The notes: a model not told the origin generated them from the sequence alone. Counted from the first letter of the stretch, positions 8,021 to 43,292 are shown. The stretch: DNA of 64,000 nucleotides from a bacterium (GCA_020350725.1 CP070719.1:43625-107624); one strand, 5' to 3'. Numbers and translations are program-made.

Positions 8021-9937
8021 CTAGGTCCGGCCCCCCCCGGCAGGATCGCCTTCCGGATCCCGGCCCCTGTTGCTCCCCGCCAGGTAAATCATCAGGGCGG
8101 ACACCGCCGCCGGCGTGACGCCCGGTATCCGGCTGGCCTGGCCCAGCGTACGGGGCCTCACTCCTTCCAGCTTCTCCCTCACCTCCGCCGATATCGCTCC
8201 CAGGGACGAATAGTCGATATCCTCCGGAATCCGCAGGCTCTCGAGGTGTCTCATCTTCTCGACCATCGCCTCCTGGCGTCTGATATAACCTTCATATTTG
8301 ACCTGGATCTGGACCTGGTCGGCAACGTCCCTCCGCTCTGCGGGCTCGAATCCGGGGTTATATTCCGTCAGGTCCCGGTAGGAGACCTCCGGCTGCCGGA
8401 GGGCATCGAAAAGGAGCGATCCCTGCCTGGGTGCCCCCTCGCCCAGGTCCACCGTCACCCGGTGCCTGCCCAGCCTCTCTATCTCCTCCTCGATCAGACG
8501 CGCCTTTTCTTTCGTGGTCTCCGCTTCTTCGGCGGTTATGAGGCCGACGGCGTGTCCCTTGTCCATGAGGCGGAGATCGGCATTGTCCTCCCTGAGGAGG
8601 AGCCGATGCTCCGCACGGGACGTCAACAGGCGATAGGGCTCGGATGTTCCCTTGGTCACCAGATCGTCGACCAGGACACCGATGTAGGACTCGTTGCGGC
8701 CGAGGACCAGGGGAGGGTCACCCTTCACCCGAAGGCCGGCATTGATTCCAGCGACCAGGCCCTGGCCGGCTGCCTCCTCGTAACCCGAGGTGCCGTTGAT
8801 CTGACCGGCCAGGAACAGGCCCGGCACGGATTTAACCTGGAGATCGGGGCCGAGCTGTGTGGGATGCACGAAGTCGTACTCGATGGCGTAACCGGGTCGC
8901 ATGATCTGCACCTCCTCGAGGCCGGGGATCGTACGCAGCATCTCGAGCTGGACGTCAATGGGGAGCCCGGTGAACATTCCGTTCGTGTAGATCTCCCTCG
9001 TGGAAAGGCCCTCCGGCTCGAGAAAGAGCCGGTGGCCGGTACGTCCGGGAAAGGCCCTCACTTTGTCCTCGACGCTGGGGCAGTAGCGGGGAGGCGCCCC
9101 CGTCATCACCCCGGAGATCATGGGCGAGCGATCGAGGTTGTCCGCAATGATCCTGTGGGTCTTCTCGTTGGTCCTGGCGATCCAGCAGGGCACCTGGTCT
9201 CTCTCGATCCGGTGGTTCCTGAAGGAGAAGGGGACAAAATCCGGATCGCCGTTCTGGGGCGTCAGGGGCCGAAAATCAATGGTCTTGGCGTCCAGCCGCG
9301 GCGTGGTGCAGGTCATGAGCCTTCCCATCCGCAGGCCGAGGCCGGCGAGGGCCGCCGACAGGGAAACGGCCGCAAACTCACCGGCCCTGCCTGCCGCGTA
9401 CCGGGTGTCACCGATGTGTACCATGCCGTTGAGAAACGTTCCCGAGGACACGACGACCGTCCGGGCCGGGAATTCCTCTCCCGCCTGGGTATGGACCCCG
9501 ACCACCTGCGCCCCGTCCATGAGGAAGCCCTCCGCCAGGCCCTGTTTGATGTGGAGCCGCTCCTGTCCCTCCAGCTTCTCCTTCATCCACGTCTTGTACT
9601 GGAGCATGTCGGCCTGGGCTCTTGAGGAGCGGACAGCCGGACCCTTCCGGGTGTTGAGGCGGCGGAACTGAATGCCGGTGGCGTCGATCGCCTGGGCCAT
9701 GACCCCCCCCAGAGCATCGATCTCCCTCACCACATGCCCTTTGGCGAGGCCCCCGATGGCGGGGTTGCAGGACATCTGGGCGATCTGGTCGATGGAAATC
9801 GACAGGAGAAGGGTCTCCAGCCCCATCCGGGCCGCTGCCATAGCTGCCTCGCATCCGGCGTGTCCGCCGCCGACCACAACCACATCGTATTGTGTAGAGG
9901 GGCGGAATCCCTTCGTCCGCCGATGGTCCCTATTCAT
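8021..9937 (-). CDS. mnmG: tRNA uridine 5-carboxymethylaminomethyl modification enzyme MnmG (GidA)
   Basis: FAD-binding N-terminus YDVVVVGGGHAGCEAA; start set at internal Met of the 655 aa ORF. Confidence 0.9.
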   Translation of the reverse strand: MNRDHRRTKGFRPSTQYDVVVVGGGHAGCEAAMAAARMGLETLLLSISIDQIAQMSCNPAIGGLAKGHVVREIDALGGVMAQAIDATGIQFRRLNTRKGPAVRSSRAQADMLQYKTWMKEKLEGQERLHIKQGLAEGFLMDGAQVVGVHTQAGEEFPARTVVVSSGTFLNGMVHIGDTRYAAGRAGEFAAVSLSAALAGLGLRMGRLMTCTTPRLDAKTIDFRPLTPQNGDPDFVPFSFRNHRIERDQVPCWIARTNEKTHRIIADNLDRSPMISGVMTGAPPRYCPSVEDKVRAFPGRTGHRLFLEPEGLSTREIYTNGMFTGLPIDVQLEMLRTIPGLEEVQIMRPGYAIEYDFVHPTQLGPDLQVKSVPGLFLAGQINGTSGYEEAAGQGLVAGINAGLRVKGDPPLVLGRNESYIGVLVDDLVTKGTSEPYRLLTSRAEHRLLLREDNADLRLMDKGHAVGLITAEEAETTKEKARLIEEEIERLGRHRVTVDLGEGAPRQGSLLFDALRQPEVSYRDLTEYNPGFEPAERRDVADQVQIQVKYEGYIRRQEAMVEKMRHLESLRIPEDIDYSSLGAISAEVREKLEGVRPRTLGQASRIPGVTPAAVSALMIYLAGSNRGRDPEGDPAGGGRT

Positions 9938-10028
9938 GGAACAACCCTCGAGCAAATGCCGGGATATCCGGCCGGGCCGCCAACACACCCGTTCCCCTGT
10001 CCGAGCCGTCCTCCGGGTACCCCATCAT

Positions 10029-11607: not shown

Positions 11608-13308
11608 CTACTTCTTCCCCTTGCCCTTCTTGACCTTGACCGGCTCGGGCTCAGGAAGGCTCTTGTCGTCCCTCTTGTTCAGATAGTACTGGTGGCCTAT
11701 GGTGAGGACGTTGTTGACCAGCCAGTAGATGACCAGGCCGGCCGGAAAATTGAGGAAGAGGGCGGTAAACATGATGGGCATGAAAAGCATGATCTTCTGC
11801 TGCCTGGGGTCCCCCGCGGCGGGCGTCATCTTCTGCTGGAGGAACATGGTGCCGCCCATGATGATGGGCGTTATGTAGTAGGGATCCTTGGCGGACAGAT
11901 CGGTGATCCAGAGGAAGAACGGAGCGTGTCTCAGCTCAATGGCCCCCAGCAGGGCCCGGTAGAGGGCAAAGAACACCGGAATCTGGACCAGGATGGGCAG
12001 GCAGCCACCCGCCGGGTTGACCCGGTGCTCCCGGTAAAGGGCCATGATCTCCTGGTTCAGTTTTTCCCGATCCTTCTTGTACCTCTCTCTCAGGGCGTTG
12101 ATCTGCGGGTTGAGCCGGCTCATCTTCTTCATGGACCGGTGGCTGGCCGTGGAGAAGGGGATGAAAAATATCTTGATCAAAATGGTCAGGATGATGATCG
12201 ACAACCCGTAATTCTTGACATATTTGTAAAAGAAATTGAGGAGGTCCATCAGCGGCTGGGCGATGAAACCGAAGAAGCCAAGGTTGATGGTCTTGCGGAG
12301 GGTCTCGTCCACAGTCCTGAGGGAGACCATCTCCTTCGGTCCGATGTAGACGAGCGCCTTCATCGCCGACGCCTGCCCCGTGAGCAGCCTCACCTGGGAG
12401 GTGAGAGCCACCCCCATTCTCCCGTCTTCCTGCTTCCGGGCAAGGGAACCGTCCGCTCCGCTGACCGGGATCATGGCGGCGGTGAAATACATGTCGGTGG
12501 TCGCGATCCATTGGGGCAGATATTCCAGGTCCTGCGTTCCGTCCACCTTTCCCGGCTTGATCTTCCTGGTCTTGTCGCCGACGAGGGCCAGTGCTCCCTG
12601 ATACCCGTACCGTCCTCCCCCGAAGGGTCCGCCCTCCTTCTCTTCCGCCAGGGGCTCGAGGCCGGGCTCCCAGACCAGGGAGAGCCTGCCGTTCAATGGG
12701 GCTGGACCGCGATTGAGGATCTTCACGTCTGTTTTGATGCCGTAATTGTCGCCGGAGAAGGTGAAGGTCTTGACCATCTCGAGGCCCTCCTCCGTCCGGA
12801 AGCGGAATCCTGCGGACGCCTCCTGGCCTTCCTCGATCAACATGTCGCGCCCCTCTATGACGAACAGGGCGTCCTGCAGGCCGAGCGGTCCGCCCGCCGC
12901 GGTGAACTCGGCGCTGAGGGGCAATGTTTCCGCCCGGGGTGACCGGACCATCTCGACGAAGGATTCGGGCTCTCTGGGATCCTCAAGGAACTTCATGAGC
13001 CGATAGCTCTTGATGCCTCCACCCCGGTTGGTGAGAACCGCCGTATATAGAGGCGTTCGAACGACGACCTGCTTCTCGGCCGACTCCTGCAGGGCGCCGG
13101 GACCCTCTTCCGGGAAAACCTCTCCGGTTTCCGGTGGCGGCAGAAGACCTGCGTCTGGCTCCCGGTCGGCCGGGACGATCTCCTCGACAACCGGCCCGGT
13201 CTCCTCCTCCGGCGTGGGGGGAGACGGAGCGAAATACGACTGCCAGACGAAGAGAAACACGAAGGAGATAGCAACGGCTAATATCAGGCGTTTTATCTGG
13301 TCATCCAT
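11608..13308 (-). CDS. yidC: membrane protein insertase YidC
   Basis: 566 aa; N-terminal TM, large periplasmic domain, C-terminal multi-TM core and basic tail; conserved position. Confidence 0.9.
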   Translation of the reverse strand: MDDQIKRLILAVAISFVFLFVWQSYFAPSPPTPEEETGPVVEEIVPADREPDAGLLPPPETGEVFPEEGPGALQESAEKQVVVRTPLYTAVLTNRGGGIKSYRLMKFLEDPREPESFVEMVRSPRAETLPLSAEFTAAGGPLGLQDALFVIEGRDMLIEEGQEASAGFRFRTEEGLEMVKTFTFSGDNYGIKTDVKILNRGPAPLNGRLSLVWEPGLEPLAEEKEGGPFGGGRYGYQGALALVGDKTRKIKPGKVDGTQDLEYLPQWIATTDMYFTAAMIPVSGADGSLARKQEDGRMGVALTSQVRLLTGQASAMKALVYIGPKEMVSLRTVDETLRKTINLGFFGFIAQPLMDLLNFFYKYVKNYGLSIIILTILIKIFFIPFSTASHRSMKKMSRLNPQINALRERYKKDREKLNQEIMALYREHRVNPAGGCLPILVQIPVFFALYRALLGAIELRHAPFFLWITDLSAKDPYYITPIIMGGTMFLQQKMTPAAGDPRQQKIMLFMPIMFTALFLNFPAGLVIYWLVNNVLTIGHQYYLNKRDDKSLPEPEPVKVKKGKGKK

Positions 13309-17823: not shown

Positions 17824-21578
<3,755 letters not shown>

Positions 21579-21665: not shown

Positions 21666-24113
21666 ATGAGCGACCTGATCGGTTCTGTCAACGCACCTAT
21701 CAGCAGCGTTAACATCGAGGACGAGATGAAAACCTCCTACCTCGATTACGCCATGAGCGTCATCGTCGGCAGAGCCCTCCCCGACATCAGGGACGGCCTC
21801 AAACCGGTGCACCGCAGGACCCTTTTCGCAATGCACGACCTGGGCAACGTCTATAACAAACCGTATAAAAAATCAGCCCGTGTCGTGGGTGACGTCATAG
21901 GCAAGTATCACCCTCACGGTGATCAGGCGGTTTACGACACCATTGTGCGCATGGCCCAGGACTTTTCCCTCCGCTACCTGCTCGTGGACGGGCAGGGGAA
22001 CTTCGGCTCCATCGACGGGGACGCGGCGGCCGCCATGCGGTATACCGAGGTCCGCATGACCCGGCTGGCCGGAGAGCTCCTTGAGGATATCGACAAGGAG
22101 ACGGTGGACTTCGGGTCCAATTACGACGACACCCTGACCGAGCCGCTCGTCTTCCCCGCCTCCTTCCCCAACCTCCTGGCCAACGGCTCGTCCGGCATCG
22201 CGGTGGGCATGGCTACCAACATACCGCCGCACAATCTGGCTGAGGTCATCGACGCCTGCATCCTGGTCATCGAGAAACCCAACGCCGGTATCGACGAGAT
22301 CATGAGTATCATGCCCGGCCCGGATTTTCCCACCGGCGGATTCGTTTACGGCCTGCAGGGGATAAGGGACGCTTACACCACGGGCAGAGGCCTTATCAAG
22401 ATGCGGGCCCGGGCCCAGATCGAGAGGGGAAAGAAGAAGACCGCTATCGTGATCACGGAGCTTCCCTACCAGGTCAACAAAGCCAGGCTCGTGGAGAGGA
22501 TCGCCGACCTCGTCAAGGAAAAGAAGATCGAGGGGATCTCCGACCTCCGCGACGAGTCGGACCGGGAGGGCATGCGGCTTGTCGTGGAGCTCAAGCGGGA
22601 CAGGGACGAGATCGCCGAGGTGGTCCTCAATCAGCTCTATTCCATGACCCAGATGAAGTCGACATTCGGCGTTCAGATGCTGGCCATCCACCGGAACCAG
22701 CCGGTCCTCTGCACCCTGCCCCAGGTGCTTGGCCACTTTGTCGACTTCCGGGTCGAGGTGGTCACCCGCAGAACCCGGTTCCTCCTGGCCAGGGCGGAAG
22801 AGCGAGCCCACATCCTGGAGGGTCTGAAGATCGCCCTGGACAACATCGATGCCGTCGTGGAGCTGATCAAGAAGTCCAAGGATGTCCCCGAGGCCCGGGG
22901 CGGCCTCATAAAGCGGTTCGGCCTGTCGGAAAAACAGGCCAACGCCATCCTGGAGATGCGACTCTCCCGTCTCACAGGGCTGGAAAGGGAAAAGGTCGAG
23001 ACAGAACTGACAGAGACGCTGGCCGAGATCAGCCGGCTCCGGGCCATCCTGGCCGACGAGAAGAAGGTGTTGGCGGTCATCGTGGACGAACTGAGGGGGG
23101 TCCGCGACCGATACGGCGACGCCAGGCGGACCGAGATCGTGGCGGACACCGGTGAGCTGTCAATGGAGGACCTCATCGTGGACGAGGAGGTCCTCGTCAC
23201 CGTGTCCCACTCGGGCTATATCAAGAGATCATCTCTGGCGCTGTACCGCTCCCAGCAGCGCGGCGGCAAAGGGCTGACCGGCCTGTCCATGAGGGATCAG
23301 GATTTCGCCGAACATATCTTCGCGGCCTCGACCCACAGCCATATCCTGTTCTTCACCAATCGGGGAAAAGTGTATTGGCTGAAGGTCCACGAACTTCCCC
23401 AGATGGGGCGGGCGGCCAGGGGCAAGAACATGGTTAATATCCTGCCTGTCGAGGCAGACGAGGAAGTCACGGCCTTCCTCCCGGTCAGGCACTTCACCGA
23501 TCGGCACTTCGTCGTCATGGCGACCAGGAACGGCGTGGTGAAGAAGACGGCGCTCTCCGCCTATTCCAATCCCCGCTCAACCGGGATCATCGCCCTGACC
23601 CTCGACGCCGGGGACGAACTGATCTCCTCCCTTCTCACCGACGGGGAGCGGGATCTCCTTATCTGCACCCGTCAGGGACAGGGGATCCGTTTCCGGGAGC
23701 AGGCGGTCCGCCCGATGGGCCGGACCGCCAGGGGCGTTCGGGGGATCAATCTGAGAACGGGCGACAGGGTCGTGGGCATGGAGGTCGTCAACGACGCCGC
23801 CTACCTCCTCACCGTCACCGAGCGCGGCTTCGGCAAGCGCACGTCCATGAAGGATTACAATCCCATCGGGCGGGGCGGGAAGGGCGTGCGATCGGTAAAG
23901 GTCACGGAAAAGTCGGGAGAGCTGGTGGGCATCCTCCAGGTGGGCTCCGAGGAGGAGATCATGTTGATCACTGACGCGGGCAGGCTGATCCGCATGCCCG
24001 TGGGGGGCATCTCGGTCTACAGCCGATCTTCCCAGGGCGTCAAGCTCATCGACATGCCTAAACCCGACGAGAAGGTCGTCTCCGTGGCCCTCATTCAGAA
24101 GGGGGAAGGCTGA
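21666..24113 (+). CDS. gyrA: DNA gyrase subunit A
   Basis: 815 aa; active-site region AAMRYTE, C-terminal beta-pinwheel repeats. Confidence 0.95.
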
Positions 24114-34123: not shown

Positions 34124-35098
34124 TTATTCGAACAGGACGTTGGCGTCCACCCGATGGCCGGCTGCCTTGAGCAGCTTGATGAGGTTGATCTGCCACCCGC
34201 CGTCGGCCTGATAGGGCAAATAGGCGACGCCGAAGAACCCGGTTGGAACATCACTGGGCCTGTCTCCCCCGTGGAGGACGGCGACCCTGCCCTGTCCGAG
34301 CCTGCCGACGAGGTATCCGAGTTCGAAGATGATGTCCTGCCGGTGCCTCGGCTTGGCGATCTTGGCGGTGAGCCCCGGCAGGCCGCTCCTGTCGTCGGAG
34401 GGCAGTATGATCAGACAGAAACCAAGATCGGGCAGGGCCGCGATCCCCTCGATCTGGGATGCGGAGGATGACTGGGTTTCATCGATCATTGTCGCCTCGA
34501 CACCGAGCTTGTCGAGAAGACTGACCACGGAAAGGGTCATCTCGTCTTCCCTGGTGTGGAGCAGGAGGACACCCCTGTTCTCTTCCGGGGCGGGCCCCTC
34601 TGCCGGGGGGGGAGGTGGTGCGGCCGGCACCCTCGGCGCCTCCGGAGCCTTGGTCTTTGGGGCCGGCTTTTCCTCCACCAGGTCCTCTGCCTTGATCTCC
34701 AGGATCGCTCCACCCGCCCCGGACGGGAGGTCGTCGATGGCCGCCAGGATCTCCTCCAGCTGGGCGATGGCCTTGGGAATTCCCATCTCGAATTTCATCT
34801 GCTTTTCCGCGTGGGAATCCCTCAGGCTGACGTGGCCCATGAAGACCCTGAAAGCGCCGAACCTTTCCTGCTCGGGCGAATCCTCACCGAAGACGCCGGC
34901 GACAGTAGCGGCGACGGTCCGCTGCAGATCTTCGATCTCAGGGCTGTCGAAAGGGACGATCTTGGGATCGATGAAGCGGAGCTGGTCAAGGACCGAGGTA
35001 ATGGTCTGTCTGCCTCTGTCGACGGATATCCTGCCCACGGCCGCTCCCATGTCTCCGGCCCCTGCCGGGGAGAATGAGTGACGCACTCTACCGGACAA
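34124..35098 (-). CDS. two-domain protein: unknown N-terminal domain, Pro-rich linker, C-terminal TIR-like nucleotide-binding domain (COG4271-like)
   Basis: C-terminus VLLLHTREDE...FCLIILPSDD...RQDIIFELGYLVGRLGQGRVAVL...RPSDVPTG matches the TIR-like pattern recalled from memory (FIVHGHD / AIVLLTPDD / RQNVIFELGYFIGKLGR). Confidence 0.6.
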   Translation of the reverse strand: MSGRVRHSFSPAGAGDMGAAVGRISVDRGRQTITSVLDQLRFIDPKIVPFDSPEIEDLQRTVAATVAGVFGEDSPEQERFGAFRVFMGHVSLRDSHAEKQMKFEMGIPKAIAQLEEILAAIDDLPSGAGGAILEIKAEDLVEEKPAPKTKAPEAPRVPAAPPPPPAEGPAPEENRGVLLLHTREDEMTLSVVSLLDKLGVEATMIDETQSSSASQIEGIAALPDLGFCLIILPSDDRSGLPGLTAKIAKPRHRQDIIFELGYLVGRLGQGRVAVLHGGDRPSDVPTGFFGVAYLPYQADGGWQINLIKLLKAAGHRVDANVLFE

Positions 35099-35308
35099 TC
35101 TGGTTCTATTGTAACGACCATTACCCTGTTTTGCCAGCGAAAGAGGGTCTTTCTGAGGCAGGCGGCCGTAACGAAGGAAGGACAGGGTGTATTGCGCACC
35201 GCGTCTGTTTTTCCTACAATTAACCCGGGTTCACGGTTTTTGACCGGAGGCCCCCCGGGTCGCATACTCCGGACCGGGGCCTTCGAGCGGCCAGAGGGGG
35301 CTTTGCCC

Positions 35309-36229
35309 GTGAAGAGCACCCTGCTGAGCAGTAGCTTTCTCGCCCTGCTCCTCTTCCTGCCGGCCCAGGTTGTCGCCGGGGCTCTGGAGCAGGGGGTCGA
35401 CGCCTATGATCGCCAGGAGTTCGAGCTTGCCCTTTCCCTTCTCGAGCCCCTTGCAGCGGAAGGTCTCCCGGAGGCACAGCACTATCTGGGCAACATGTAC
35501 GCCTCCGGCGGGGGTGTTGTCCAGGATTTCACCGAAGCCCTTAAGTGGTGGTCTCTGGCCGCGGCTCAGGATCATACGGCCTCTCAGTACAACCTGGCAT
35601 ATCTCTATCATGACGGTCTCGGTGTCCCGGCCGACATTGACAGGGCTCTGGAATGGTACCGCCGCGCCGCGTCACACGGTGAACCGAACGCCCTGTATAC
35701 TCTCGGACAGATGTATGCAGTCGGGGAAGGCGTTCCACAGAGCCGCACCGAGGCCAAGCGTTATTGGCAGGATGCTGCAAACAGGGGCGATCCCGATGCC
35801 CAATACGACCTGGGCCTTCTGTACAGCGAGGAGGATGGCCGGGATCAGGCGGCGGCGCTGGGCTGGTTCCTCAGGGCGGCAGAGCAGGGGCATCCCTATG
35901 CCCAGTACCGCGCGGGTACCAGCTATTACGAGGGACGAGGGTGCACCGCAGATCCGCGAAGGGCCTTTGATTGGCTCAAGAAGGCGGCCGAACAGGGGGT
36001 CCCTGACGCCCAGGCCGACGTCGCAGCCATGTACGCACGGGGCGTGGGGGCACCCCTGGACATCTCGGCCGCCGTAACGTGGTATCATCGGGCCGGCCGA
36101 TCCCTCCTGTCGGACGGGAGGAGGGACGAAGCCATGGAGATCCTGGACATGATCGCCGAGACCGATCCGGGCAGCGACTCCTACCGGAAACTCTACACCG
36201 AGATCTTCGGCGGGGCGTCGGCCCCTTGA
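35309..36229 (+). CDS. secreted Sel1-repeat protein
   Basis: GTG start, signal peptide, multiple Sel1-like repeats (AQYNLAYLYHDGLGVPAD..., ALYTLGQMYAVGEGVPQS...). Confidence 0.7.
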   Translation: MKSTLLSSSFLALLLFLPAQVVAGALEQGVDAYDRQEFELALSLLEPLAAEGLPEAQHYLGNMYASGGGVVQDFTEALKWWSLAAAQDHTASQYNLAYLYHDGLGVPADIDRALEWYRRAASHGEPNALYTLGQMYAVGEGVPQSRTEAKRYWQDAANRGDPDAQYDLGLLYSEEDGRDQAAALGWFLRAAEQGHPYAQYRAGTSYYEGRGCTADPRRAFDWLKKAAEQGVPDAQADVAAMYARGVGAPLDISAAVTWYHRAGRSLLSDGRRDEAMEILDMIAETDPGSDSYRKLYTEIFGGASAP

Positions 36230-36981: not shown

Positions 36982-37122
36982 TCCTGCCGGACCGGCTTGA
37001 CGGCTCCTCCCCCTCTGGCAGGCCGAAGCCCCTGTGGACGATCACGGTCCGGGGGGCCGGATGGCGGGGCCCGGATGGCCGCCGGGCCGGCGACGTTCGC
37101 TCCCCAGAGGTCATGGAAGATA

Positions 37123-37884
37123 ATGGTCCGCCCGGGCAATCCTGACCACGGGAGGCATCCGCCGATCCACCTCGGAGGAATAGGGATCTCCCATGACAGA
37201 TACCCCACCCGGGATCATCATCCGTTCAACCTCGAGATCCTGCAGAACACATCCAGACTGATCTTCTCCTCACCGGTCACGTTCTTTGCCGGCGAGAACG
37301 GGTCCGGCAAGTCCACCCTCCTCCGTGGCATCTGCCTGAGCTGCGGCATTCACATATGGGAGAGCGAGCGACGCAGGCGCCTCGAGCCCAACCGATACGA
37401 GGGCAGACTGCACGAGGCGATTGACGTCCAGTGGAGCAGCCAAGGGGTTCCTGGTGCGTTCTTCGCGTCCGAGATCTTCAGGGATTTTTCCCAGGCGTTG
37501 GACGAGTTCGCGGCGGCGGATCCGGGCTTCCTTCGCTACTTCGGCGGCAGATCCCTTGTCAGCCAGTCTCACGGTCAGTCCATCATGTCCTATTTCAGGT
37601 CACGGTGCCGGATCGAGGGCCTGTACCTCCTCGATGAACCGGAGACGGCGCTGTCGCCGCGGAGCCAGATCCAACTCCTGCGGATCCTGGCCGGAGCCTG
37701 CCGGGGTGGGGGAGCCCAGTTCATCATAGCCAGCCACTCGCCCATCCTGCTGTCCTGCCCCGGAGCCCTGATCTACAGCTTCGACGGCGACGCAGTCGAG
37801 CCCATTTCCTATGAGGAGACCGATCACTACCGGGTCTACCATGATTTCATGCTGGACAGAAACAGGTACCTCGCCGGCCCGTGA
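37123..37884 (+). CDS. orphan ABC-type (AAA_21-like) ATPase
   Basis: 253 aa; Walker A GENGSGKST, Walker B LYLLDEPETALS, H-loop ASHSP; no transporter permease nearby. Confidence 0.7.
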   Translation: MVRPGNPDHGRHPPIHLGGIGISHDRYPTRDHHPFNLEILQNTSRLIFSSPVTFFAGENGSGKSTLLRGICLSCGIHIWESERRRRLEPNRYEGRLHEAIDVQWSSQGVPGAFFASEIFRDFSQALDEFAAADPGFLRYFGGRSLVSQSHGQSIMSYFRSRCRIEGLYLLDEPETALSPRSQIQLLRILAGACRGGGAQFIIASHSPILLSCPGALIYSFDGDAVEPISYEETDHYRVYHDFMLDRNRYLAGP

Positions 37885-37920
37885 AGGTCTTGTCGGCAAG
37901 GGGCGATCGCCAACCCCTGA

Positions 37921-38044
37921 TCTCCAATCTCCAATGTCTAATGTCTAATGCTCCAATCTCTATTGCTCTAATGCTCCAATGTCTAATGCTCCAATGTCTA
38001 ATGCTCTAATCTCTAATGTCTAATCTCCAGCCTCTAACGTCTCA
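37921..38044. repeat. degenerate 7-8 bp tandem repeat array (about 17 units, TGTCTAA / TGCTCCAA / TCTCCAA)
   Basis: Read directly from sequence; relatively AT-rich; lies between convergent 3' ends of the ATPase gene and the FTR-like gene. Confidence 0.8.
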
Positions 38045-38052
38045 CTCCACCT

Positions 38053-38583
38053 TCACATAAACCGGTCAAAGCGGTCCCCTTCCGCGTGGCAGATGGGACA
38101 GGTCTCGGGCGGTGTATGGCGCGCACAGAGGTATCCGCACACCCGGCACCTCCAGACCGGGTAGGCCAGGCCGGAGGATGCCGGGTGGTCGGTGTTCTCC
38201 CTTCCGGCCCGTTTCTGCCCCTCGGGGGGGCGCCGCTCCGGGATCGGCCCGGCCTGCCCCCTGCCCTCAGCGATATCGGCCGATACGTAAAGGGCACAGT
38301 AGCAGGACCCGAATTCAGCCAGGTCGGGATCCCTGTAATCACAGGGGCAGATGATGTCGAGGTCGCGCTCCCGTTGGCCGTCGGCGAGACGACAGGGGCA
38401 GGCCATGTAGCCGTAGCGCTCCTGGTTGACAAGCAGGCTTCGGACGAGCTCCATCGTGAAGGGTCTGTCAGGATTGAGGTGATATCCTCCTGCCGAGGCG
38501 TTCTCGATGAGCTCCCGGTATGCTTCCTCCACCCGGCGGGAGGAAGGCTCCTCCATCGACTCCCTCCGGTCCCTGTTCTTCAT
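38053..38583 (-). CDS. ferredoxin:thioredoxin-reductase catalytic-subunit-like protein fused to C-terminal rubredoxin (FDR-type)
   Basis: CPC...CPC...C.C cysteine pattern (ACPCRL, ICPCDYR, SCYCAL) plus rubredoxin CxxC...CPxC (CRVCGYLC...CPICHA); start ATG overlaps upstream stop (ATGA). Confidence 0.75.
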   Translation of the reverse strand: MKNRDRRESMEEPSSRRVEEAYRELIENASAGGYHLNPDRPFTMELVRSLLVNQERYGYMACPCRLADGQRERDLDIICPCDYRDPDLAEFGSCYCALYVSADIAEGRGQAGPIPERRPPEGQKRAGRENTDHPASSGLAYPVWRCRVCGYLCARHTPPETCPICHAEGDRFDRFM

Positions 38584-38861
38584 TTGGAGACCATTTCCTG
38601 GAGCCTGTCGGGATCGAAGCCGACCAGACACTCCGATCCGTTGACCACCACTGTGGGATAGGAACAGCGGGGATTCCACCGCTTCAGTTCCTCCAGCGCC
38701 CGGGTCTTCTCCTCCGGTGGAAGAAGGTCCACGTCAACGTAAGTGTATTCCAGGCCGGCATCGTTCAGCCAGGCCTTCGTCTTTCGACACCACCCGCAGG
38801 TGCTGAGAGTATACAGAAAGATCTTTCCTCTGTCGGTTCCGGGAACGTGGACCTTCTCCAT
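38580..38861 (-). CDS. glutaredoxin/thioredoxin-like protein (CGWC active site)
   Basis: FLYTLSTCGWCRKTKAWL...VDVD...PTVVVNG; translationally coupled to the downstream FTR-like gene. Confidence 0.7.
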   Translation of the reverse strand: MEKVHVPGTDRGKIFLYTLSTCGWCRKTKAWLNDAGLEYTYVDVDLLPPEEKTRALEELKRWNPRCSYPTVVVNGSECLVGFDPDRLQEMVSK

Positions 38862-39016
38862 TGACAACCTCCGGGCTGTTTGAGTGCTGGCAGGGGAGGG
38901 CGGGGCGAACTCCATCCCCGGCTCCTGGTTTTTCCCAAAGTATATTACAGACAGAGCCCTCCTTCCACCCGTTCGACCCTCCTGCCTGACAGGTCATCCC
39001 TGTCGGCCCGGAAGCG

Positions 39017-40973: not shown

Positions 40974-43292
40974 ATGCTGCTCCGCCTGTCCGTCCTCCTC
41001 CTGTCCTCTTCGGTCCTCTGCTACGAGATCGTCATCATACGGCTTCTCACCATCTCTCACTGGCAACCCTTCGTCACCCTGGCCATCTCCGTCGCCCTGC
41101 TCGGCTTCGGTATCAGCGGGAGTGTCCTGGTGCGTACGGGCGGGTTCCTCTTTCCGAGGCGCCACGTCTGCTACCCTCTCTTCGCCGCCCTGGCCGCCCT
41201 TTCCTACAGGCCGATGCTGGCCGCGGCCGGCCTTCTCCGGCTTGAACCGGCCCTGATCGTCAGGGATCTGGAGCAGTGGGCGACCCTTGCTCTCCTGGTG
41301 GTCACGCTGACCTTGCCTTTTCTCCTCGCCTCACTCGCCCTCGCCCTGCCCCTTCTGGAGCGCGAGACAGTGGGCCGATATTATGGGTGGAACCTCACCG
41401 GGTCCTGTCTCGGAGCCCTTATGGCCCTGGCGGCCCTCGCCCTTCTCCCCCCCGGCGCCCTGGCAGGCGTGCCGACGGCGGCCGCCGCCGCCGCATGCGC
41501 CGTGTCCCTTCCCCATTATCACCGGCTGTCCCGTCCCTATGACATGGTGATCCTGGCGACGGCGATCCTCCTCCCGACTTTACTCATACCTTTCGGCCCC
41601 GTTCGCTACGGTCCTTACAAGGACATCTCCTATGCCCTCCTGCTCCCCGGGTCCCGGATCTCCGCCCGGGAGGGGGGCGTCACGGGGTTGATCCAGGCCG
41701 TTCAGGCGCCGGCGATACGTTCAGCAGCGGGGCTCTCGACCGGTTATCCGGGCCAATTGCCCCCCCAGGGGGCGCTTTTCAGGGACGGCGACCGCATCGG
41801 GACGCTCGTCCTGGCTGACGACGTAGCGGATACCCGCCTGGAGTATGTCCGCTGGCAGACGGGAGCAGCTGCCTACGAGATGCTGACCCCCGGAGCGGAG
41901 GTGGCTGTCGTCGGTTTCGACGGAGGGGAGGAGATGGTAAGGTCGCTGGTCTACGGGGCCTCCCGGGTTGCGGTAGCCGAAGCGGATCCGGTGGCGCAGA
42001 GGATGGCAGGGTCGACTCCCGAGGTCTTCAAGGAGTGGATATTTTTCCACCCGGGTGTGTCCCTGGTCACCTCCAATATCCGATCCTTTCTGGTCTCGGC
42101 TCCGGGACGGTTCGATGCAGTGATCTTCCCGGCCTCGGGCAACCTGGCGGCCGCCGCGGCGGGGTTGACCGGCACGGCTGAAAGCTATGAACTCACCCAT
42201 GAGGGAATAGGCGCCGCCCTGGAGGCCCTCCGGGAGGGAGGCCTGGTCGCCATCAGCGGGTGGAACCAGGAGCCGCCCACCGCCCGCCTGAAGATATTGG
42301 CCGTGCTGAGGGACCTGGCCGAGGACCTGAACGAGAGCTGGTACCCAGAAGGGGTGGCCGTCATCGAGGGGTGGTCCACCCACACCGTCATCGTCCGACG
42401 CACTGCCCTCTCGGCAGGGGATCTGGATGCCCTGGCGGCCTTCTGCCGATCCAGGGCCTTTTCCCTGGTCAGGAAATGGGACCTTGGGGATGGGGAGGGG
42501 AGGATGCTGGGAGAGCGGAACGTGGGCGGTCTTGAAGGGTATGATCTGCGGCCGCCCGTGGACGACAGGCCCTTCCCCTGGCACTCCATGAAAGTGTCCC
42601 AGCTGGGCCGCATGGCCGGCCGCCGGGGGGAGGCAGCCTTCCTGAAGGTCGAGTGGGGATTTCTCTTCCTGATCATGACCCTGGTCCTGTCGGTGGCGCT
42701 TTCGCTGGTTCTGTTGGCCCTTTCCAGGCCAGCCAACCGATCGTCGGCCGCCCGTTGGCCGTTTACCCTTTACTTCTCCTCTCTGGGAATTGGGTACATG
42801 GTCATCGAGGTCATGACCATCAAGAGGGGCGGCCTCGTCCTGGCGCCTCCGGCCGTCTCGGCCGCCCTCGTTCTGGCCGGCTTTCTCCTCTTCTCCGGGC
42901 TGGGGAGTCTCACGGCGGGTAAACTCCACCGCAGGACAGGACATGTTCCCATGCTGTTCCCGTTCATCCCGATCGCGGCAGCGGGCATTTACTTCCTGAT
43001 GCCCCACCTCGTCCAGCTGGCGACGCCGATCAGGGTCATCATGGTCCTTGTCCTTTTGGCCCCCTGCGCCTACCTGATGGGGTTTCCTTTCCCGGCGGCT
43101 CTCGGCGGTTTCCGAACCCGAAGGGAATCCCTTGTGCCGTGGGCGTGGGCCGCCTCGGGATACACGTCGGTCCTCGGCAGTTCCCTGGCCGGGGTTCTGG
43201 CCATCACCGGAGGCCTCTTCGTCCTGCTCCTCCTCGGAGCCGCCTGTTATGTCCTGGCCGCCATCCTTTTTCCCCGGGTGGCACGGGAGTGA
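40974..43292 (+). CDS. polytopic membrane protein with central spermidine-synthase-like (methyltransferase-fold) domain
   Basis: 772 aa; N- and C-terminal multi-TM blocks; N-terminal YEIVIIRLL motif typical of membrane-fused SpeE-like proteins; starts 7 nt after pcm. Confidence 0.55.
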   Translation: MLLRLSVLLLSSSVLCYEIVIIRLLTISHWQPFVTLAISVALLGFGISGSVLVRTGGFLFPRRHVCYPLFAALAALSYRPMLAAAGLLRLEPALIVRDLEQWATLALLVVTLTLPFLLASLALALPLLERETVGRYYGWNLTGSCLGALMALAALALLPPGALAGVPTAAAAAACAVSLPHYHRLSRPYDMVILATAILLPTLLIPFGPVRYGPYKDISYALLLPGSRISAREGGVTGLIQAVQAPAIRSAAGLSTGYPGQLPPQGALFRDGDRIGTLVLADDVADTRLEYVRWQTGAAAYEMLTPGAEVAVVGFDGGEEMVRSLVYGASRVAVAEADPVAQRMAGSTPEVFKEWIFFHPGVSLVTSNIRSFLVSAPGRFDAVIFPASGNLAAAAAGLTGTAESYELTHEGIGAALEALREGGLVAISGWNQEPPTARLKILAVLRDLAEDLNESWYPEGVAVIEGWSTHTVIVRRTALSAGDLDALAAFCRSRAFSLVRKWDLGDGEGRMLGERNVGGLEGYDLRPPVDDRPFPWHSMKVSQLGRMAGRRGEAAFLKVEWGFLFLIMTLVLSVALSLVLLALSRPANRSSAARWPFTLYFSSLGIGYMVIEVMTIKRGGLVLAPPAVSAALVLAGFLLFSGLGSLTAGKLHRRTGHVPMLFPFIPIAAAGIYFLMPHLVQLATPIRVIMVLVLLAPCAYLMGFPFPAALGGFRTRRESLVPWAWAASGYTSVLGSSLAGVLAITGGLFVLLLLGAACYVLAAILFPRVARE

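Follow-up and report, generated by a model that had tools for sequence, protein, structure and literature searches.

Ferredoxin:disulfide reductases (FDRs) are iron-sulfur enzymes found in archaea and bacteria and are relatives of the catalytic subunit (FTRc) of the ferredoxin:thioredoxin reductases (FTRs) (PMC6262447). A [4Fe-4S] cluster in the active site is used by FTRs as well as by FDRs (PMC7278568). The FDR of archaea reduces the thioredoxin MaTrx5 (PMC6262447), and methanoredoxin, which according to a review is reduced by FDR, uses coenzyme M (CoM-SH) in an insulin reduction assay (PMC7278568). The subject here is a pair of adjacent genes for a small glutaredoxin (Grx)-like protein and a predicted FDR, both located on the minus strand of a 64-kb stretch of a bacterial chromosome (CP070719.1:43625-107624), which is referred to below as the window. 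Positions are counted from the first nucleotide of the window, and the main features are collected in Table 1.

Among solved structures, 4TPU bears the PDB title 'ferredoxin-dependent disulfide reductase from Methanosarcina acetivorans'. This FDR is said to have been described by Kumar et al. in 2015 and by Prakash et al. in 2018. The entry 5CAX, which we take to be methanoredoxin (MRX) and whose CVWC motif fits, was reportedly described by Yenugudhati et al. in 2016. 7PWE is titled 'glutaredoxin/ferredoxin disulfide reductase fusion protein from Desulfotalea psychrophila' in the PDB. Earlier work on Methanosarcina has described the enzyme family with its structure, the Grx partner and the transfer between the two, and the structure of a bacterial fusion is available. 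In the window, this already known FDR/methanoredoxin system is present as an ordinary bacterial copy, and the GenBank name of the enzyme, 'ferredoxin:glutaredoxin reductase' (UCF32065.1, an exact match to the 167-aa form), is correct. What is added here is the frequency of the Grx-then-FDR order, 77 among the 80 best-matching species of both prokaryotic domains, and a reductase start that can overlap the Grx stop in about 90% of the pairs. These figures back Grx as the cognate substrate of the enzyme in bacteria too. Further additions are that no third gene is conserved beside the pair and that the reductase start codon may need correction.

Overall, the two genes most probably make up one bicistronic operon, complete in itself, for a relay that reduces protein disulfides with electrons from ferredoxin, a reading to which we assign a probability of roughly 0.85. 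The reductase matches FeThRed_B (PF02943) at 1.4e-18, with 67.3 bits against a cut-off of 22, and RUBY_RBDX, the rubrerythrin-type rubredoxin domain, at 1.7e-12. The FTR-type cysteines C62-P-C64, C79-P-C81 and C94-Y95-C96 are invariant across 24 diverse aligned homologues, as are the rubredoxin cysteines C146-xx-C149 and C162-xx-C165, and Y95 is at least 90% conserved. Pairwise alignments place the FTR-type cysteines on the CPC, CPC and CYC motifs of 4TPU and also align them to 7PWE. They align one-to-one with CPC, CPC and CHC of the Arabidopsis FTRc 7BZK, in which the position of Y95 is occupied by His. The protein thus has the FDR-type Tyr and not the FTR-type His, and by homology its catalytic cysteines would supply the ligands of a [4Fe-4S] cluster together with a redox-active disulfide. 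The preliminary description of this locus, made from the sequence alone, had located both genes exactly and had read the second as an FTR catalytic pattern joined to a C-terminal rubredoxin, with kinship to the methanogen FDR. The domain matches, the cysteine alignments and the comparison with 4TPU all bear this out.

The match to 4TPU is collinear and full-length (reductase residues 15-176 against 3-172, E-value 2.5e-56), with 53% identity across 167 aligned residues. Both proteins possess an FTR catalytic domain followed by a C-terminal rubredoxin, the CPC...CPC...CYC arrangement with Tyr for the FTR His, and matching sets of four rubredoxin cysteines, and the two rubredoxin domains align with each other. 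They differ in that the host of the window enzyme is a bacterium and not a methanogen, that the window enzyme has a possible 9-residue N-terminal extension, and that its interdomain linker is shorter and of other sequence. 4TPU is also the top Foldseek match of the reductase (E-value 3e-17). The AlphaFold model has a mean predicted local distance difference test (pLDDT) score of 78.6, and its catalytic domain superposes on 7PWE at 1.6 Å. The family is large, with more than 8000 clusters at 90% identity matching at E-values of 1e-10 or below, and tightly conserved, with 40 clusters at 50% identity matching at 1e-30 or below among 1.84 billion representatives. The best-scoring relatives after the self-match (P0002, P0005, P0017, P0023 and P0061) are proteins of about 218 aa in which the FTR domain is followed by two tandem rubredoxin domains.

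The gene pair is conserved well beyond the window. The preliminary description had named two findings that would speak against it, missing cluster-ligating cysteines and a pair not kept in relatives, and neither was observed. A scan of one genome per species gave at least 598 relatives, and the best 80 loci, about 27 archaeal and about 53 bacterial, were analysed. The archaeal loci include Methanoculleus, Methanobacteriaceae, Methanothrix, Methanosarcinaceae, Thermoplasmatota, Hadarchaeum and Altiarchaeota. The bacterial loci include Chloroflexota, Aminicenantes, Zixibacteria, Elusimicrobia, Thermodesulfobacteriota, Spirochaetota, Bacillota, Ignavibacteria, Actinomycetota and Armatimonadetes. 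In 77 of these loci, the gene directly upstream, on the same strand, encodes a homologue of the window Grx. The remaining three have trivial explanations: one locus is cut by a contig end (L075), one has a degraded reductase open reading frame (ORF; L016), and in a WOR-3 bacterium (L019, 3075-3979) two small genes are inserted between Grx and reductase. Judged by eye, without a domain search, this insert resembles a nucleotidyltransferase/HEPN toxin-antitoxin pair. The upstream Grx proteins of the related loci share 50-60% identity with the 5CAX fragment and therefore belong to the methanoredoxin family.

Clustering of all ORFs from the 80 loci and the window region revealed no third conserved neighbour, such as a gene for a ferredoxin, NrdD or a peroxiredoxin. 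The recurring clusters are FDR, Grx and their antisense shadow ORFs, and any other cluster is confined to at most seven closely related loci. As no other neighbour is conserved, the module consists of the two genes and is complete in itself. The ORFs on the opposite, plus strand, such as 38086-38661, are treated as antisense shadow ORFs of a genome with 60-65% GC; their equivalents in other loci form clusters only because they overlap conserved genes.

Fusions preserve the same arrangement. All 10 of the N-terminally extended relatives tested are Grx-FTR fusions in the order of the genes, and P0246 is a triple fusion of Grx, FTR and rubredoxin. The solved Desulfotalea protein 7PWE follows the same plan: Grx matches its N-terminal part (7e-14) and the reductase its C-terminal part (4e-38), so that its order is the gene order, and its catalytic domain is 60% identical to that of the window reductase. 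Unlike the window pair, which consists of two translationally linked genes and includes a rubredoxin, 7PWE is a single polypeptide in which no rubredoxin domain was matched. Some Grx-FTR fusions are further extended, P0349 by a MarR-type DNA-binding domain and P0352 and P0368 by DUF3422. Such extensions suggest that the module also serves as a base for ferredoxin-linked redox sensors or regulators.

Whichever reductase start holds, no more than 23 nt separate the reductase gene from the Grx gene. The TGA of the Grx gene overlaps an in-frame ATG of the reductase within an ATGA, as the preliminary description had noted. In 69 of the 77 species in which the two genes lie side by side, the Grx stop is overlapped by a plausible reductase start, at -4 (ATGA or GTGA) in 48, at -1 (TAATG) in 11 and in other ways in 10. 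Where the reductase has a single plausible start, 45 of 52 loci overlap. With a plausible overlap in 69 of 77 pairs, the arrangement is more than chance and therefore a family trait.

In the window genome itself, the overlap may nevertheless be incidental, with the reductase translated from Met10 (38556) and the nine upstream codons untranslated. This has somewhat less than an even chance of being correct. The overlapping ATG is preceded by a weak AGGAA at a distance of about 12 nt, while the ATG of Met10 follows a strong GGAGG by 6 nt. Met10 is also the start chosen by GenBank and by metagenome gene callers, yielding the 167-aa form, a gap of 23 nt and a start 27 nt downstream of the overlapping ATG, and it gives the N-terminal length typical of the family, with 23 aa before the conserved Gly33. 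On the other side, the stop/start overlap is the norm in the family. Moreover, the N-termini of the sister genome JBFFDD010000083 (MTHRKVSQQTEEP) and of P0030 (MKDRSRSKSGADP) are similarly long when compared with that of the window (MKNRDRRESMEEP), whose nine extra residues resemble theirs, and the sister gene has its sole ATG at the overlapping position, with no internal ATG, and is called as 179 aa with a 4-nt overlap. Both starts may also be used. We put the two starts at roughly even odds. By the comparative evidence, the GenBank start may lie 27 nt too far downstream, and the real start may be that of the 176-aa form, or translation may begin there as well. Of the tight coupling proposed in the preliminary description, the conserved overlap stands, whereas the literal overlap in the window genome is made ambiguous by Met10.

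The upstream partner of the reductase is a protein with the active site C22-G-W-C25 (reading TCGWC) and a cis-proline, P69, within S-Y-P-T. It matches the Pfam Glutaredoxin family at 1.7e-13 and is identical to UCF30941.1, a 93-aa 'glutaredoxin family protein' in GenBank. A longer ORF of 111 aa, beginning at 38915, is also available. The 93-aa form is preferred because homologues are 92-95 aa long, because the sister gene starts at the equivalent Met behind a GGAGG with the same spacing, and because GenBank calls the same start. The closest solved relatives are the Methanosarcina 'glutaredoxins' 5CAX (E-value 2.9e-26; 49% identity to the fragment) and 3NZN from M. mazei (3.9e-25). They share with the window protein a Grx fold of about 93 aa, a CxWC active site and the cis-Pro motif S(F/Y)PT, and in the related loci examined members of this family lie directly upstream of FDR. 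The window protein differs in having CGWC where methanoredoxin has CVWC. Among 78 partner Grx sequences, the LSTCxWC motif and the cis-Pro are kept in at least 95%; the active site is CxWC in all, CGWC being the most frequent form (35 of 78). The best NCBIfam match is TIGR02196 (YruB family), at 53.9 bits and under its cut-off of 88.55. The cut-offs for classical glutaredoxins are likewise not reached (TIGR02181, 28.3 against 90; TIGR02180, 22.2 against 87.25).

Since methanoredoxin can use CoM-SH in the insulin reduction assay (PMC7278568), Grx in the window might be reduced mainly by a low-molecular-weight thiol, and the reductase might act on the corresponding small-molecule disulfide or on other proteins rather than directly on Grx. 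We consider this improbable. The covalent Grx-FDR fusions, with their shared order, argue for direct transfer from protein to protein, and methanoredoxin uses FDR according to the review. In addition, the host is bacterial, as indicated by gyrA, gyrB, dnaA and yidC in the window, so that coenzyme M synthesis, and with it a dependence of this Grx on coenzyme M, would be unlikely. Nor does the protein have the canonical CPYC and GG glutathione-binding motifs, its active site being CGWC rather than CPYC.

It also seems quite improbable that supplying electrons to the anaerobic (class III) ribonucleotide reductase is the dedicated task of the pair. The title of Wei et al. (2015) points to such a precedent in M. 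barkeri, and the Grx partners are often labelled 'glutaredoxin-like protein NrdH' by JGI. The Grx of the window, however, reaches only 32.9 bits against the NrdH cut-off of 85.75 (TIGR02194) and 25.6 against 131 (NF007657), and solved NrdH proteins match it at about 1e-6 or weaker (best 2.2e-6, against 2.9e-26 for methanoredoxin). Neither nrdD/nrdG nor any other conserved third gene lies by the pair in the window or the 80 loci. Ribonucleotide reductase could still be one of several targets of Grx.

A classical plant or cyanobacterial FTR system that regulates enzymes in dependence on light or redox state, in which the small protein would be an ordinary thioredoxin, is very improbable: although the reductase shares with FTRc the catalytic domain family and fold and the six cysteines around the [4Fe-4S] cluster, true FTRc chains match it at E-values of only 1.6e-4 to 0.04 (22-27% identity) as against 2.5e-56 for FDR, the His of CHC is Tyr, FTRc has no rubredoxin domain and needs a variable subunit (FTRv), for which no gene lies within about 4 kb of the pair or is conserved beside its relatives, and FTRc reduces WCGPC thioredoxins while the partner here is a CxWC protein of the Grx type.

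For the preferred reading, a ferredoxin-dependent relay through the two proteins, the following course can be proposed. Reduced ferredoxin would deliver single electrons to the Fe(Cys)4 centre of the C-terminal rubredoxin (C146, C149, C162 and C165), and this centre would pass them to the active-site [4Fe-4S] cluster, whose ligands by homology to FTR would be C62, C79, C81 and C94. The disulfide C64-C96 adjacent to the cluster would then be reduced by one electron in each of two steps, Tyr95 occupying the position of the essential FTR histidine. The exposed thiol of C64 would attack the disulfide that C22 and C25 form in the co-expressed Grx-like protein, which once reduced would itself reduce disulfides of target proteins. 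Synthesis of the two proteins would be coupled by the stop/start overlap or by the gap of at most 23 nt. The division of the cysteines into cluster ligands and disulfide, and the role of Tyr in place of His, are what we take to follow from work on FTR and FDR, reportedly by Dai et al. in 2000 and 2007 for the former and by Kumar et al. in 2015 and Prakash et al. in 2018 for the latter. The sequence comparisons show the domains, the conserved cysteines, the orthology to solved FDR and methanoredoxin, the kept gene order and overlap, and the fusions; we infer which metals are bound, that ferredoxin is the donor, in which direction and order the electrons move, and that target proteins follow downstream.

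Several observations weigh against the relay as proposed. In the AlphaFold model the rubredoxin domain is placed with low confidence, and the whole-chain root-mean-square deviation from 4TPU is 16.8 Å. The linker leading to this domain (residues 126-137) has pLDDT values below 50. The start codon is ambiguous in the window genome, so that coupling through a literal overlap is no more than plausible there. Neither a ferredoxin gene nor an obvious target gene lies within about 4 kb of the pair. Coenzyme M is another reductant of archaeal methanoredoxin (PMC7278568), so FDR need not be the sole one. Likewise, the archaeal FDR is reported to reduce Trx5 as well (PMC6262447), so Grx may not be its sole substrate. 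For this last reason the preliminary description went slightly too far in calling Grx the dedicated substrate of the reductase; the conserved pairing and the existence of fusions support the partnership itself.

Taken together, these features allow a wider and more tentative picture, to which we give somewhat less weight than to its negation. The host presumably makes no coenzyme M, and the pair might constitute an autonomous pathway from ferredoxin to protein disulfides that involves no small thiol, in effect the Desulfotalea Grx-FDR fusion in 'split' form. The near-universal overlap would ensure that enzyme and substrate, as an obligate pair, are made one-to-one. The cassette, which occurs at 50-65% identity both in methanogens and in over 15 phyla of bacteria, would have spread by horizontal transfer, and it could be a principal disulfide-reducing system of strict anaerobes.

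Table 1. Positions of the gene pair, its parts and landmark genes in the window
Feature	Position	Strand	Remarks
Ferredoxin:disulfide (glutaredoxin) reductase gene	38053-38583	minus	176 aa from overlapping ATG; 167 aa from 38556
FTR-type catalytic domain	38263-38511	minus	residues 25-107; Pfam FeThRed_B (PF02943)
C-terminal rubredoxin-like domain	38068-38154	minus	residues 144-172; Pfam RUBY_RBDX
Alternative reductase start	38554-38567	minus	ATG 38554-38556 (Met10); GGAGG 38563-38567, 6 nt upstream
ATGA stop/start overlap	38580-38583	minus	Grx TGA 38580-38582; candidate in-frame reductase ATG 38581-38583
Grx-like (methanoredoxin-type) gene	38580-38861	minus	93 aa; ORF and translation
Shine-Dalgarno GGAGG	38868-38872	minus	6 nt before Grx ATG; read from sequence
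Upstream intergenic region	38862-39016	minus	155 nt; probable own promoter of the pair
mnmG	8021-9988	minus	
yidC	11608-13308	minus	
dnaA	14830-16200	plus	
gyrB	19053-21578	plus	
gyrA	21666-24113	plus	

The window is a part of a bacterial chromosome near the replication origin, with a GC content of about 60-65%. Upstream of the pair, the 155-nt spacer probably carries the pair's own promoter. A terminator-like hairpin (38947-38972) follows the upstream outer-membrane protein (OMP) gene and is itself followed by an AT-rich stretch, TAATATACT. The sister genome shares the synteny of the neighbouring genes but has no OMP gene at this place, which fits an own promoter of the pair in the spacer, and it shows an AT-rich stretch containing TATAAT upstream of its Grx gene. 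We infer this promoter only, because a scan for promoter and terminator consensus sequences gave counts no better than in shuffled sequence. A search of the whole window with Rfam at gathering thresholds returned no regulatory RNA. A Pfam search of the neighbouring genes shows nothing redox-related: they encode the OMP beta-barrel, a protein with EF-Tu domain 2, PCMT, a membrane protein of 772 aa and an AAA ATPase. The multi-pass 772-aa protein (40974-43292, plus strand) has no Pfam match, and the AAA_21/AbiEii-like ATPase (36997-37884, plus strand) is convergent with the reductase; both are syntenic in JBFFDD010000083.

The convergent spacer between the stop of the ATPase gene (37884) and that of the reductase gene (38053) is filled by the sole sizeable tandem repeat of the window. 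This repeat (37920-38037) consists of about 15 copies of a 7-nt CTAATGY-like unit and can also be read with periods of 15 and 38 nt. Its RNA, read on the reductase strand, has unusually little structure (z = +3.0). Each of the four metagenome contigs from short reads that contain the reductase gene ends within 150 nt past its stop, so they probably break at the tandem repeat. The equivalent spacer of the sister genome does not contain the array. Elsewhere in the window, a 324-aa ORF on the minus strand (34124-35098) possesses a CAP12/Pycsar-effector TIR domain (PF10137, 3e-12) and is possibly an anti-phage defence effector. It is adjoined by a Sel1-repeat protein (35078-36229).

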